Shown here one piece after another: positions 9,556-16,765 of a stretch of 44,304 nucleotides of DNA. Numbering within the stretch: the stretch's first letter is position 1; each line of letters starts with the position of its first letter. The position numbers and the translations under genes are program-made. The notes below the pieces were generated by a model that had not been told where the DNA came from, made no database searches, and saw nothing but the letters and a program-made list of their open reading frames with translations. Origin of the DNA: Candidatus Heimdallarchaeota archaeon (GTDB lineage Archaea > Asgardarchaeota > Heimdallarchaeia > Heimdallarchaeales > Heimdallarchaeaceae); NCBI GenBank assembly GCA_021399345.1, contig JAAFKI010000170.1:1-44304 (forward strand), read 5' to 3'.

Positions 9556-12150
9556 TCATTGTTCCTTTAAGTAATAATCAGGAGAAGTTACAAATCTATT
9601 CTCATCATCAGCATCTCCTACTTCAAAATCAGTGTAAATTTCTTCCATAATTTCCTTATCACTTATGTCCGCTAATATTTTACGCTTATCAACTGAAATG
9701 ATTCTGCTTAATTCTATGGTTTTCGGATTGAATTTTTCCATTGTTTCTTCCATTTGAGTGAGGTTTCCGATTTTGCCTATGAGATTCATAAAGGTCATCA
9801 CAATGTCAGGTCTGAGTGCAACTTGTGGAGCAATACTCAGTTGTTTGCCTATAGAAATAGCTAAGTTGTCGATGAAATTCTGATCTTTCTCAAACAGAGA
9901 AGCTGGACGATCGCTGATGAAGGATGCAATTAATAATAAATCAATTGATGTCCATAAATAGAGGAAGGGTTTTTCCATTAGTTGTAAATTATATACAATG
10001 CCAATTTCTGTGCCTTTGACGTTTTCAACTACTTTACCTTCTAAATCAAATATTTCATTTAACTCAAATGATGGAGCACCGTAACTAACCTGAATCATAT
10101 TACCAATCTGCCTAACATTGCCCATCGAATATAGTGAGAATTTAGAATTTTCTACTTTTTCAGGGAGAATTCCTGAGTTTTTCTCAATTAAAATACTTTT
10201 CAACATTTCAATGTTATCTATTTCATCTTCAGTTCTGCCGTATTCTTGTGCAAAATCTTCTAGAATCTTTTTCTTTTTATCTCGGAGAGATAATTTAGTT
10301 CGAGAAATGAGAGGTTGGTTGTAAACATCATAAAAGAAATCATAAATTATTCCGAAAAGATCAGCAGATACTTTCTTCTTCTCTACGACAAGGAAGTATC
10401 CTTTCATAGGATGATATATGACAGAATGAGCCTTACCAATTGCTTTTCCAAAAACATTTCTTGCAGCAATATCTTTGTTTTCAGTAATTTTATCATTAAT
10501 CATATTGCTCTCTGCTGGATTGAAATAAGGAAGTAAATCACCTTTTTGGATAATGTCTTGACTTTTTATTCTCATTTCTCTTGCTGTTTTCTCTGTCTTC
10601 TCAATTGGAACAAATAGATAATTTTGAGGTTGAAGAATTATATCAATTATCTCATCAGTTAATACTGAACCCTTAATCTTACAATATTCGATAATCGCTT
10701 CTGGTATTAAATATGTAAAAGGCATTTGTGGTATATTTTTAGGTAGCTCATTTAACAGAAATTCCTTTTTCTCTTTTTCATTTTCTAGTTCAGCTTCTCC
10801 ACTGATTGGTAAAACTATATTATCGTAAATCCTTCTGACCATAGAGAGTGATAACTCTTGTTGTTGCCTTAGAATTATACCAAATTTCTCATTTAGTTGT
10901 CCTGGACCGACCACAAAACCAACTAAATCCTTTTGTTCATCAATAACAGGTTTACCAGAATATCTCCAAAGAGCTTTAAGTTCTGATAACAGCTGATAAT
11001 CTATTTCCCTACTTGAAGCACTAGTTGCAACTGTTAATTGATTGCGAAATTGTAGGGCACTAATAATTTCACTATATTTTTGAATACGATTTTCTGTTTC
11101 AAGTGTTAGATCTTTGAAGTATGGAGTTATTATTTCTTGATACTGTAGATGCTCTCCATAAATTACATCCAGAGCATCCAAATCTTTAGCATAATCGTTA
11201 ATATCTTCATCTAATAGCTCTTCATAAATTTCGAGTTGTTTGATTTTTCTTGTTAATTCATTAATTTGAGCTTCAGAAATTTCATCTATGTTGTTCTCCT
11301 TGAAAAGTCTGAAATTTTCTCTTTCCTGTTGAATAATAACCTTCCATCTTAGAGTATCTTGAGCGGCTTTTCGGAGAATAGGTCTATGTCTTAACACTCT
11401 TTCATTAATATCATAGATTATTCCCTTCAATTCTTTTTTATCAGTAACTAAACGTCTTAACCTATTGATGTTTTCACTCAATTCATTGTTAAAAAGGAGA
11501 AAATTATTGTGAGTGTTTTTGTATAAATGTTCTGTGCTAACAGAAAATAATAACTCAGATAATTTGTAAAAGTGTTGAAAGATTTTATGTTGCTTGGCTT
11601 CAACTTCATTCTTCTTCAACATATATTCCTGGTCATCAAGTTTACCAGACACATATTCTTGCTCCCAAGCCATCTCCTCTTCAAATGTCTTTGTAGCTGC
11701 TTTTATAGCCATATTCATAACATATCTTACTTTTAATTCTTCAATTTCAATGGGAGGAATTTCTTCAAGCTCAATAATAGGAATTTCAGTTGCTTTAACG
11801 ATTTCGACTTCAGTTGGTACAAACACTTCTTCTGTTTTAATTTGAGGTTCACCAGTTTCAGTTTCGGTTTCGGTTTCGATTTCGGTTTTTGCTGGTATTA
11901 ATATTTCTCCTCTATGAATTTGATGTATGTCCTGTTCAACTTCAGGTAATTTTTGTTTAGTTTCTTCTAGTTCTTTCTTTTCCTCATCTGCAGTAATAGT
12001 TTTTGGAAGATTTGCTAGAAGTTCCTTATATTTGTTTTTTAAAGTTTGATAGGTTCTTCTATCAATTGAACCACGGATGTAACGTAAATCTAAATCTCTA
12101 ATAAATCGGAGAATACGTCTTCTCTTAACGTTTACTTCATCGTCTAACAT
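9556..12150 (-). CDS. Large protein with CdvA/SHOCT-like helical motifs, coiled coil and three PRC-barrel-like repeats
   Basis: Helical motifs LRYIRGSIDRRTY and EYVSGKLDDQEY. Three motifs of the GxxVxD/NxxGxx(I/V)GxV type, each closed by a downstream beta-strand pair. Confidence 0.6.
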   Translation of the reverse strand: MLDDEVNVKRRRILRFIRDLDLRYIRGSIDRRTYQTLKNKYKELLANLPKTITADEEKKELEETKQKLPEVEQDIHQIHRGEILIPAKTEIETETETETGEPQIKTEEVFVPTEVEIVKATEIPIIELEEIPPIEIEELKVRYVMNMAIKAATKTFEEEMAWEQEYVSGKLDDQEYMLKKNEVEAKQHKIFQHFYKLSELLFSVSTEHLYKNTHNNFLLFNNELSENINRLRRLVTDKKELKGIIYDINERVLRHRPILRKAAQDTLRWKVIIQQERENFRLFKENNIDEISEAQINELTRKIKQLEIYEELLDEDINDYAKDLDALDVIYGEHLQYQEIITPYFKDLTLETENRIQKYSEIISALQFRNQLTVATSASSREIDYQLLSELKALWRYSGKPVIDEQKDLVGFVVGPGQLNEKFGIILRQQQELSLSMVRRIYDNIVLPISGEAELENEKEKKEFLLNELPKNIPQMPFTYLIPEAIIEYCKIKGSVLTDEIIDIILQPQNYLFVPIEKTEKTAREMRIKSQDIIQKGDLLPYFNPAESNMINDKITENKDIAARNVFGKAIGKAHSVIYHPMKGYFLVVEKKKVSADLFGIIYDFFYDVYNQPLISRTKLSLRDKKKKILEDFAQEYGRTEDEIDNIEMLKSILIEKNSGILPEKVENSKFSLYSMGNVRQIGNMIQVSYGAPSFELNEIFDLEGKVVENVKGTEIGIVYNLQLMEKPFLYLWTSIDLLLIASFISDRPASLFEKDQNFIDNLAISIGKQLSIAPQVALRPDIVMTFMNLIGKIGNLTQMEETMEKFNPKTIELSRIISVDKRKILADISDKEIMEEIYTDFEVGDADDENRFVTSPDYYLKEQ
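11855..11888. repeat. Imperfect hexanucleotide repeat (GTTTCR) encoding a Glu-Thr low-complexity tract
   Basis: gtttca gtttcg gtttcg gtttcg atttcg within the CDS, giving TEIETETETET. Confidence 0.6.
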
Positions 12151-12290
12151 TCTTAATAGAATTAAAGATTGTACGTATTCAAATATGTTCCTAAATTACC
12201 CAATTGAAAAATATCTAGAACGATAGGTATAAACTAATCTACCCGTAAGAAAAATATTTAATACTATAAGGAATAAATTAATTTAGAAAT

Positions 12291-12295
12291 GGTGA
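12291..12295 (+). promoter_or_regulatory. Archaeal Shine-Dalgarno GGTGA of the profilin gene
   Basis: GGTGA 7 nt before ATG 12303; the same motif precedes the genes at 6606 and 16968. Confidence 0.6.
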
Positions 12296-12302
12296 AAGAA
12301 TC

Positions 12303-12662
12303 ATGAGTTTTCAAGACGATGTTGTAGTAGCTGCACAGGAAGGAACCGTTGGAGTGGTTTGGTTAATTGGGGATGATTTGAAATGTTATTATCAATATGG
12401 TGACTGGGCTGTTGATCCTACAATACCTTTCGATTCGTGGAAAAATCAAAAACCAAGCGTTGATTTTGGCGGAGGTTTAAAATTTACAGTGATCACAATG
12501 TCTCCTGAGAGATTGATCTCAACCAATATGGGAGGTCAAGGACATTTAATTGTTGCCCGTTGTCCAAAATGGGCAGGTTGTGTAATTTCTTGGTGTCCAG
12601 CCACTATTCAAAAAGACATAGCTTATGCTACTACAGCAAGACTCGCGGCCAAAGTAGCTTAA
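12303..12662 (+). CDS. Asgard-type profilin (actin regulator)
   Basis: 119 aa. GLKFTVITMSPERLISTNMGGQGHLIVARCP resembles the Asgard profilin core as I recall it (GIKYxVVxxxxERxIxTNxxGxGHxxxxP); QxGDW in the N-terminal half. Confidence 0.8.
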   Translation: MSFQDDVVVAAQEGTVGVVWLIGDDLKCYYQYGDWAVDPTIPFDSWKNQKPSVDFGGGLKFTVITMSPERLISTNMGGQGHLIVARCPKWAGCVISWCPATIQKDIAYATTARLAAKVA

Positions 12663-12684: not shown

Positions 12685-12987
12685 TTGATTTCACATCCGT
12701 CTATTGAAATTAGGAATGAAGAAATTTTTTTATCAATTAGAGTTCATCCAAAATCTTCAGTAAATAGGATTGATGTTACTGATTTTTCGATAGATATCTA
12801 TGTTAAGGAGCCAGCAGATAAAGGAAAAGCAAATAGATCAGTATTAAGTTGCTTAGCTAAAACATACAAAATTCCCTCCTCTTCTCTTTCTATTTCTCGA
12901 GGGTTAAAGTCCAGAAATAAAATAATTGTAATAAAGGATCAAAATAATGATTTACTTTTTAAGAAAATAATTGGAAAGCGTTTTTAG
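12685..12987 (+). CDS. DUF167/YggU family protein
   Basis: IRVHPKS, EPADKGKAN and GLKSRNK motifs. Confidence 0.9.
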   Translation: MISHPSIEIRNEEIFLSIRVHPKSSVNRIDVTDFSIDIYVKEPADKGKANRSVLSCLAKTYKIPSSSLSISRGLKSRNKIIVIKDQNNDLLFKKIIGKRF

Positions 12988-13550
12988 AGTTTCATCTTTT
13001 CAAATGCTCGGAGCAACTCATTTCTTTCATTAAACCGATTTTGTACGCTGCTACTCAGATTCATCAGAGATGCGATATTACCCTCTACTGTATCTAACAT
13101 CATCTCTTCCAGTTTGATTTTTACATCTACTATTTTATCTTTAAATTCTTCAGCGTTATCCAAAATATCTATTTCTAGTAAGTAGAGGATAGACAAATCT
13201 ATTCCATGCTCACCTTCAACTTCTTTTACATCAAAAAAAGTGCTGTATTTATAATCTGTGCTTGCTGTCTCTTTTCTCATATCTGAAACGATTTTCATGA
13301 CTATTCCTGCTGGACCCCAGCTTGTTAATAGTTGTGAATGGATTAGAAGTTCATGCACTTGACTCATCATGTCTCCAGTTTCCCTCATTATTGTAAGTAA
13401 TTTTGTTCTGAAAGCTACATCAGAATCTCTTCTTAGCTCTAATTCTTTGTATCCGTGATAGTTTTCAATATTCGTCCTAAGAATTTTCAGGGCCTCACTG
13501 GGTTTCTTTGAAATTTCTTCTTCAGACAAATTCTTTTTCTTACCGAACAT
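12984..13550 (-). CDS. Conserved hypothetical alpha-helical protein
   Basis: IENYHGYKELELRRDSD and YSTFFDVKEV...LYLLE resemble a widespread uncharacterised family (IPGyxGYxExExRRxxD), from memory. Confidence 0.6.
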   Translation of the reverse strand: MFGKKKNLSEEEISKKPSEALKILRTNIENYHGYKELELRRDSDVAFRTKLLTIMRETGDMMSQVHELLIHSQLLTSWGPAGIVMKIVSDMRKETASTDYKYSTFFDVKEVEGEHGIDLSILYLLEIDILDNAEEFKDKIVDVKIKLEEMMLDTVEGNIASLMNLSSSVQNRFNERNELLRAFEKMKL

Positions 13551-15352: not shown

Positions 15353-16765
15353 TTATCTTTTCTTGCCTTTTTGATCTTTCATTTCCAGAACAATTTCACT
15401 AATCAGATGAATAAGATTTGCACTTAAAACATCAAGACTATTTTTAAGTTCTCGAACAGCTTGAGTAAGATCATCAATCTTTTGCATTTGTTCTGCAGGT
15501 TGAACTTTCTGCACTTCTGTATCTACTTGTAACTCCTGATCAAAAACAATGAGATCTTTCTCAAATTGATCCATTTCAGGAGTTCTAGGTTCTGGTATAG
15601 AAGTAATGTCACCTTTAATTACAGATTTTGCAGCTTTTTTGCGTTTTTCCTTCTTACTTTTATCGCGTTCTTCTTTTTCACGAATTCTTTCCAAATAAGG
15701 TAGGATTTGTGCGTAATCTATTCCTTCTCTGCGAGCCATATCTGTCAGGAGAATGTCACGATATCCAGGATCTTCGATTTTCAATTCATCTATATCTTTC
15801 TCTAATTCCTGAATTACTGCAATTGATTCGTAAACATTTTTGATAGGAGCTTTTATTTCTGGTTCCCTTTCAACAGTTTTTGTAGCTTTGACTTCTTCTT
15901 TCAATGATTTCATGGCTTTTATAACTTCAGCCTTGACTGTATCGGTTTCTCCTTTAGAAAGAGCTTCCTTAACCATATCAAGTTTACTCACAGATTCAAA
16001 AGGTTCTTTTTTGGCTTTTTCTTTGATATCTATTTTTTGTTCAGTTTCTTCTATATCTTCTTCAGTTTCTTCTGCAGACTCTTCATCTTGTTTTGTAAAT
16101 GTTGGCGGAACTGATATATATTTGAAAAGGTTTTTAGCAAAATTAGAATTATCTTTTAATTCAATTCCTGATTTGGAATCTGATAACAATTGGTATGAAC
16201 CACATACAAAAACTGTTCCTAAACCATAAGACGAAATACACATAACAGCAGAACTTGGAGGATCGCTTGTTTTTTTTGTTCTAGCTAGTTCCTCTACTCC
16301 TTCTTTGAAATGCAGGGAGCAACTGGAAACCACTGTTATCTCACTAAGACCTTCGGTAATTGGGTGCTTATAGAATTTTGAAACAATTACATTACTTTCT
16401 AATTCTAAATCAAAGTTTTGGTAATCAAAAATTTGATTAGCTACGATTTCCACATTAAAATGTTTGAGTAGTGTGTTTAGATTAGTATTTAATCCCTTAT
16501 CTCCTCCTGCATTAGTGAAAACTGCTAATGCTCCTCCCTCATCAACAAATCTTAACAATGCTTTAACTTCATGACCCATAATCTTTGAACCATCAGGACA
16601 TAAGAAAACAAATATATCAAATTTGGAAATGTTTGAATATTTTATCGGATATGAATCATGTTTACTTATTTCATGTCCTTCATCTTCGAGTATGTTTGAT
16701 AGCTTCTGAAAATTCTCAAAAATTTTTCCTCTCTCTTTTTGAGTTTCATCGAAAAGTATTTTCAT
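15353..16765 (-). CDS. GIFT-domain (IFT52/GldG/DUF4350-like, class I GATase-like fold) protein with C-terminal charged/coiled-coil region
   Basis: KILFDETQKE, FVDEGG, GGDKGLNTNLNTLL, HPITEG, GTVFVCGSYQLLSD and DNSNFAKNLF; no signal peptide. Confidence 0.7.
   Translation of the reverse strand: MKILFDETQKERGKIFENFQKLSNILEDEGHEISKHDSYPIKYSNISKFDIFVFLCPDGSKIMGHEVKALLRFVDEGGALAVFTNAGGDKGLNTNLNTLLKHFNVEIVANQIFDYQNFDLELESNVIVSKFYKHPITEGLSEITVVSSCSLHFKEGVEELARTKKTSDPPSSAVMCISSYGLGTVFVCGSYQLLSDSKSGIELKDNSNFAKNLFKYISVPPTFTKQDEESAEETEEDIEETEQKIDIKEKAKKEPFESVSKLDMVKEALSKGETDTVKAEVIKAMKSLKEEVKATKTVEREPEIKAPIKNVYESIAVIQELEKDIDELKIEDPGYRDILLTDMARREGIDYAQILPYLERIREKEERDKSKKEKRKKAAKSVIKGDITSIPEPRTPEMDQFEKDLIVFDQELQVDTEVQKVQPAEQMQKIDDLTQAVRELKNSLDVLSANLIHLISEIVLEMKDQKGKKR

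Follow-up and report, generated by a model that had tools for sequence, protein, structure and literature searches.

We analysed a 44,304-nucleotide stretch of DNA from a Candidatus Heimdallarchaeota archaeon (contig JAAFKI010000170.1 of assembly GCA_021399345.1; hereafter, the window), in which a single open reading frame at 9556..12150 on the minus strand (864 codons plus a stop codon) encodes a protein, P0001, that we refer to here as the scaffold. The gene is delimited by the list of open reading frames, by its translation and by full-length homologues. All the sequence elements that a preliminary description, made from the letters of this DNA alone, had quoted for it were found in their places: two helical motifs, Y24-x2-G27-x-I29-x4-Y34 (window 12049-12081) and Y166-x2-G169-x-L171-x4-Y176 (window 11623-11655), and the starts of three repeats, YSGKPVIDEQ at residue 397 (about 10962), DIAARNVFGK at residue 560 (about 10473) and LEGKVVENVK at residue 703 (about 10044). 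Upon aligning 18 homologues of 40-85% identity, we observed that Y24, G27 and Y34 of the first motif are invariant, that Y166 and Y176 of the second are nearly so while G169 is not conserved, and that all three repeat starts are conserved. Across a divergent intergenic region of 152 bp (12151..12302, from the open reading frame list) lies a gene on the plus strand for a profilin of 119 residues (12303..12662), recognised by its matches to the PDB sequences 5zza_P (E 2.9e-11), 7pbh and 6yrr, the latter two both deposited as 'Profilin'.

The scaffold gene is real and conserved in Heimdall-group Asgard archaea, as about 40 full-length homologues are known from a word-seeded search and as it is present, in single copy, in 27 of the 28 other genomes of the window's family, the Heimdallarchaeaceae, within a survey of 301 Asgard genomes. 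The word-seeded search covered 5.8 billion proteins and returned 42 relatives, nearly all of them full length, with Heimdall-group Asgard archaea as their only source (Candidatus Heimdallarchaeota archaeon AB_125 and Ca. Heimdallarchaeum are among the names borne by related loci) and with no precomputed Pfam domain on any of the 42. Only 13 matches came from an exhaustive HMMER scan over 1.84 billion representatives; the distant ones among these, P0050 and P0052, were TPR/STAND proteins in which one helix pair had been matched repeatedly, and we took them as spurious. Searching P0001 against Pfam, NCBIfam and the PDB sequences yielded nothing at threshold, and our literature searches on PRC-barrel proteins, Asgard archaea and CdvA and on Heimdall profilin found no description of the scaffold protein; the absence of a Pfam or NCBIfam family match bears out the earlier suggestion that this family is undescribed. 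In RNA-Seq data from one sample we found short, near-identical contigs of both the scaffold and the profilin gene, a weak hint of expression. The runs labelled 'metatranscriptomic WGS' were DNA-like and the RNA runs made up a small share, and we draw no ranking of habitats or of expression from them.

In an AlphaFold2 model built with the family alignment (mean predicted local distance difference test score, pLDDT, 78.6; predicted template modelling score, pTM, 0.60), all three repeats are PRC barrels with a helical insert. Each repeat opens with three strands (about 3, 10 and 7 residues long), continues with four to six helices and closes with three short strands, and the insert, of 70-80 residues, occupies the same loop between strands 3 and 4 in all three barrels. 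On the minus strand, barrel 1 spans residues 396-530 (10561..10965) with its insert at 433-508 (window 10627-10854), barrel 2 residues 557-690 (10081..10482) with its insert at 593-668 (window 10147-10374), and barrel 3 residues 702-829 (9664..10047) with its insert at 739-807 (window 9730-9936). The preliminary description had anticipated a helical insert in each repeat, closed by strands that it quoted, and both appear in the model as foreseen. Its further claim, of three PRC barrels behind a helical region, holds as well, since the model and three independent fold searches agree. With the whole model as query, Foldseek ranked the Archaeoglobus fulgidus CdpB1/CdpB2 complex 8qzo first (probability 0.97, E 0.027), followed by RimM. 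Repeat 2 was also folded alone (pLDDT 86, pTM 0.73), and the top 10 of 48,161 PDB representatives were then PRC barrels in all ten cases, with Foldseek and the ESM Atlas returning the same families. The unit recovered is a small beta-barrel of ~70-80 residues that superposes on solved PRC barrels, which is how the fold is recognised.

The PRC identity of the repeats, clear from the predicted structure, is barely visible from sequence. The Pfam search that the preliminary description had proposed came back negative, with no match of P0001 to the PRC-barrel family PF05239 at E<=10 (the cut-off of the family being 21.2 bits), and a PF05239 search of the window's genome found nothing at E<=1. Among 18 relatives, four gave sub-threshold PF05239 matches of 11-16.5 bits, located at the starts of repeats 2 and 3, and aligning each repeat with canonical Asgard PRC proteins by HHalign placed them in register at only P 0.006-0.06. 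Precedent for several barrels per chain comes from another Asgard family, f11, where many of the canonical PRC proteins, of 220-250 residues, carry two tandem PF05239 domains in one frame (for instance at G269:C74:11566-12096 and G191:C239:16-534).

Outside the barrels, the protein begins with a basic helical hairpin at residues 3-46 (helices 3-26 and 31-46; 12013..12144, -), defined by alignment and model, which carries motif 1 (RYIRGSIDRRTY), bears a net charge of +6 and has a mean identity of 75% across the family. It is followed by a variable, acidic, disordered linker (residues 47-125; 11776..12012, -) of net charge -12, mean identity 23% and variable length, with pLDDT below 50 at residues 84-119. 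The central bundle (residues 126-370; 11041..11775, -) contains motif 2 (EYVSGKLDDQEY) and five long helices, which fall between residues 133 and 366 in the model, and its first part has 75% mean identity. Behind the barrels, an acidic disordered tail (residues 838-851) leads to a conserved C-terminal peptide (852-864), the two together spanning 9559..9639 (-). With a mean identity of 79% and with V854, P857 and L861 invariant, this peptide, FVTSPDYYL[KR]EQ, is probably a short docking motif. We considered it as a mimic of the FtsZ C-terminal peptide and rejected this, as the genome's FtsZ (387 residues; L046:1009-2172, -) ends in the dissimilar EDISIEALWRD, itself likely an anchor-binding C-terminal peptide. 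Conservation is thus highest in the hairpin, the initial part of the bundle, repeat 3 together with its insert (the most conserved repeat, at 72-75% mean identity) and the C-terminal motif, and lowest in the linker. No transmembrane segment is apparent, and the scaffold is a soluble, Heimdallarchaeia-specific protein. Protein-atlas look-ups of residues 1-82 and 126-372 returned no usable match.

The hairpin and bundle had led the preliminary description to propose a CdvA-type coil, which our searches do not support. PF18822, a model of the CdvA helical hairpin (PMC11188069), is indeed the best Pfam match of the hairpin (residues 5-77), and one could picture a permuted CdvA-like protein whose coil and barrels template ESCRT-III, with the C-terminal peptide serving as the ESCRT-III-binding tail; the CdvA peptide, for comparison, binds the winged helix of CdvB. 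We consider this very improbable. The match scores 20.2-20.4 bits against a cut-off of 30 (18.5 bits on an orthologue fragment), and 10 of 14 control genomes also yield sub-threshold PF18822 matches. Compared with CdvA, the domain order runs the other way, and a hairpin profile run against 5.8 billion proteins reached, among longer proteins, only the scaffold's own family and no CdvA. Against the PDB sequences this profile gave nothing significant (its best match was a myosin single alpha-helix, E 0.027), although the lack of a CdvA match there is uninformative because the canonical PRC profile also missed CdvA in that set. Likewise, the top fold matches of the full model did not include the CdvA coil. 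The genome's ESCRT cluster lies on a different contig (C123) from the scaffold gene, which sits on C108 beside profilin; at L044:819-3380, that cluster consists of two Snf7/ESCRT-III genes (204 and 217 residues) with Vps4 (384 residues) directly after them. In published surveys, moreover, Asgard archaea are without a reported CdvA, and their ESCRT systems are attributed to sorting, not division (PMC11188069). Hence, with a sub-threshold PF18822 score, a reversed order, unlinked ESCRT genes and a hairpin profile that finds its own family, we do not file the scaffold as a CdvA relative: orthology, or common descent beyond the barrel fold, is not supported. A relation to SHOCT domains, also raised earlier, found no backing either, with no SHOCT family (PF09851 and relatives) matching residues 1-130 or 125-385 at E<=10, a result from which a remote likeness could escape because the HMMER filters drop very weak matches.

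Beyond the window's family, the survey recovered weak matches in one family of the same class (f6) and none in the remaining 28 families. The f6 match P0051 (20% identity, residues 384-826) is the C-terminal half of a larger protein of about 1,030 residues (range 1,011-1,073), present in 11 of 12 f6 genomes, whose layout matches that of the scaffold, with a hairpin at the N-terminus, then coils, a long disordered stretch and three repeats bearing inserts. The f6 genomes also encode shorter paralogues of about 520-540 residues, with a shared hairpin (36% over 39 residues) and a shared repeat 3 (E 1e-5). Paralogues with a hairpin and insert-bearing repeats lie at L049:4990-6603 (-), L050:100-1683 (-) and L051:10-1575 (+); those in L049 and L050 are divergent from a Maf-family gene, and the frame of the L050 paralogue is split into open reading frames of 88 and 436 residues.

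The same survey raises the question of CdpB, the division protein whose plain homologues (8qzo, E 1e-21) are the canonical Asgard PRC proteins. Canonical PRC genes (PF05239) occur in 0/28 genomes of the window's family and in 10/11, 11/11, 64/76 and 6/6 genomes of other families, while the window's genome encodes SepF, FtsZ and a second tubulin-family protein. The family thus lacks canonical PRC genes yet has the scaffold, which suggests a replacement: three fused barrels would stand in for CdpB1/2/3 and work at the division ring together with SepF and FtsZ, the adjacency to profilin being incidental. On balance we regard such a stand-in as quite unlikely. The sister family f6 has both the canonical PRC genes (11/11) and the large scaffold (11/12), and several other Asgard families are largely without PF05239 and without a scaffold (e.g., f14, with PF05239 in 5 of 68 genomes), so that the scaffold is not simply a CdpB replacement, as one family carries both and some neither. 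Furthermore, the scaffold gene is not near sepF or ftsZ, and its sequence similarity to CdpB is not significant. Co-folding residues 384-864 with the genome's SepF, in a run without controls, gave no verdict (score 0.00) and counts neither way. This SepF, of 119 residues (L043:1441-1800, -), starts with the N-terminal amphipathic MGIKKKILK, and the second, divergent tubulin-family gene (379 residues) lies on contig C52 (L047:1459-2598).

The gene neighbourhood points instead to profilin, which is single copy in the window's genome and across the class. This conserved pairing, on which the preliminary description of the protein had not drawn, is the strongest clue to its function. In the window's family, the scaffold lies at most about 400 bp from profilin, in divergent orientation, in 18 of the 23 genomes that have both genes, with a spacing of about 140-180 bp within the genus. 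In f6, the scaffold adjoins profilin in 11/11 genomes, but on the opposite side of it and convergently, and the other neighbours there (e.g., a subtilase) are unrelated to those of the window's family. As the f6 scaffold thus sits on the other side of profilin, in another orientation and among different genes, rearrangement has left the scaffold-profilin pair intact, even as identity between the scaffolds fell to about 20%. In family f2, which has no scaffold, profilin keeps only the side of the block with DUF167, a 188-residue protein and a ligase. A large (~1,060-residue) neighbour of profilin in family f5 was examined as a further scaffold relative and turned out to be an Eco57I/MmeI-type restriction-modification enzyme (PF07669, E 2e-26), which follows profilin in four of the five f5 loci (L103-L106).

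Two further proteins of the block deserve mention. At window 12984-13550 (-), a helical protein of 188 residues with no Pfam or PDB sequence match stands beside profilin and DUF167 both in the window's family and in f2 (homologues of 184-187 residues that begin MFK[KR]FKS...), and it may be a more widely conserved partner of the profilin block. At window 15353-16765 (-), a soluble 470-residue protein with an N-terminal match to the IFT52 GIFT domain (PF23355, E 2.9e-10) holds the same position in the syntenic block of related genomes.

Poly-proline is the classic profilin-docking motif, as in formin FH1, Ena/VASP and WASP. In the f6 orthologues, tracts of four to eight prolines (P4-P8) occur in 6 of 9 proteins, in the linker directly before the PRC array, and one of them has six tracts. 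Stretches coding for hexa-proline are rare, at only about 5-9 loci per f6 genome, with the scaffold gene among them in four of five genomes. Weak binding of poly-proline is documented for some Asgard profilins, of which no native ligand is known (PMC8410842). For the VASP peptide, a Kd of 0.3-3 mM has been reported.

These observations bear on a non-cytoskeletal explanation, in which the scaffold would, for instance, help to assemble or mature ribosomes or some other large complex, as RimM does, and the profilin link would be left over from the local gene order. While RimM does follow CdpB1/CdpB2 in the fold search, the likeness of the RimM C-terminal PRC domain (PDB 2f1l, 3h9n, 3a1p) to the scaffold repeats is one of fold only. 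Unlike RimM, the scaffold has no RimM N-terminal domain and no ribosomal context, and it matches no RNA-binding family; the adjacency to profilin outlasts the rearrangement between families where the metabolic neighbours do not, and the poly-proline tracts of the orthologues would be hard to explain. We therefore hold this explanation to be unlikely.

As a candidate function, we tentatively propose a PRC-barrel scaffold tied to profilin and actin, possibly also to division or membrane remodelling, an assignment that we rate as quite possible though somewhat short of an even chance. In archaeal division, PRC barrels recruit partners or make polymer contacts (10.1101/2023.03.28.534520; PMC12818579), and those of the scaffold would serve as modules for protein-protein docking or self-association, as in CdpB1/B2 and CdvA. 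Recruitment of partners may fall to the tethered basic hairpin and to the C-terminal peptide, with profilin/actin as the putative main partner system. In this way, profilin, alone or together with actin, would be concentrated or positioned by the scaffold on a larger assembly that may sit at the membrane or division site. In the window's family, which has lost CdpB-type PRC proteins, it may have assumed part of the CdpB role. A role as a division or membrane-remodelling scaffold, as proposed at the outset, is possible.

Several observations weigh against a tie to profilin. Adjacency within the window's family carries little weight, because most of a 20-kb block is syntenic there, and the link therefore rests on the comparison between the two families, whose orthology is in turn based on about 20% identity and a shared architecture. 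In one subclade of the genus, scaffold and profilin are separated by 1.8 kb or sit on different contigs; at its locus L108:3600-4987 (G154), two small hydrophobic open reading frames (232 and 186 residues) lie between the two genes, and three related assemblies have them on different contigs. Tracts of at least four prolines are absent from P0001 and from 40 full-length family members, in which PPP is the maximum, and the window's genome (assembly 88.6% complete) is without any hexa-proline tract, since the only pattern match encodes GGGGGGG on the other strand, in a 361-residue membrane protein (contig C5; L138:216-1301, -). With no poly-proline in the window's family, any contact with profilin therefore needs another surface there. 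The scaffold-profilin interaction is, accordingly, a candidate derived from the gene pairing and the f6 tracts. A bolder version of the profilin-tied scaffold, which we think doubtful, would make the scaffold and its f6 orthologues a native Asgard docking platform for profilin that positions actin assembly at the membrane or division site, with profilin or profilin-actin recruited via poly-proline in one family and via another surface in the other.

Of the archaea known, Heimdallarchaeia are among those most closely related to eukaryotes, and their regulation of actin is still an open problem: Asgard profilins, gelsolins and actins have been characterised, with no native profilin-recruiting partner known (PMC8410842). 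PRC-barrel proteins, for their part, have recently been recognised as a common element of archaeal division, in FtsZ and Cdv systems alike. If the scaffold binds profilin, it would provide a concrete link between the actin system and a division-type machinery; if it does not, it still represents a protein family not described before and an insert-bearing form of the PRC barrel that is new.

Compared with known systems, the scaffold family shows a known fold in triplicated form and with inserts, within the familiar functional setting of the archaeal cytoskeleton. CdpB1, CdpB2 and CdpB3 (PDB 8qzo, 8onw), division proteins of FtsZ-using archaea that bind SepF directly and localise to the FtsZ ring, have about 70-250 residues, match PF05239 and consist of one or two uninterrupted barrels, whereas the scaffold, at 864 residues, falls below the PF05239 cut-off, contains three barrels that each hold a helical sub-domain of 70-80 residues, and has a hairpin, a helical bundle and a tail motif besides. 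CdvA (PDB 9s9g, 9s9i), a protein of archaea that divide by Cdv/ESCRT-III, in TACK rather than Asgard lineages, runs from a single N-terminal PRC barrel through a coiled coil to a C-terminal peptide that binds ESCRT-III, while the scaffold runs from hairpin, linker and helical bundle to three barrels and its own conserved tail peptide, with no genomic link to ESCRT-III/Vps4; what the two share is the PRC fold and a general logic of barrel plus helices plus tail peptide. With formin, Ena/VASP and WASP there is no homology, as the scaffold has no FH2, EVH1/EVH2 or WH2 domain, and the window's own protein, unlike these eukaryotic profilin ligands, is without a poly-proline tract. The f6 orthologues, however, resemble formin FH1, Ena/VASP and WASP in placing P4-P8 tracts in a disordered linker beside a structured assembly module, and with their gene adjoining profilin, this layout is reminiscent of a profilin-recruiting region. 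Should the docking platform prove true, prokaryotes would have a functional counterpart to formin-FH1 or Ena/VASP-type factors, assembled from parts of the archaeal division type.

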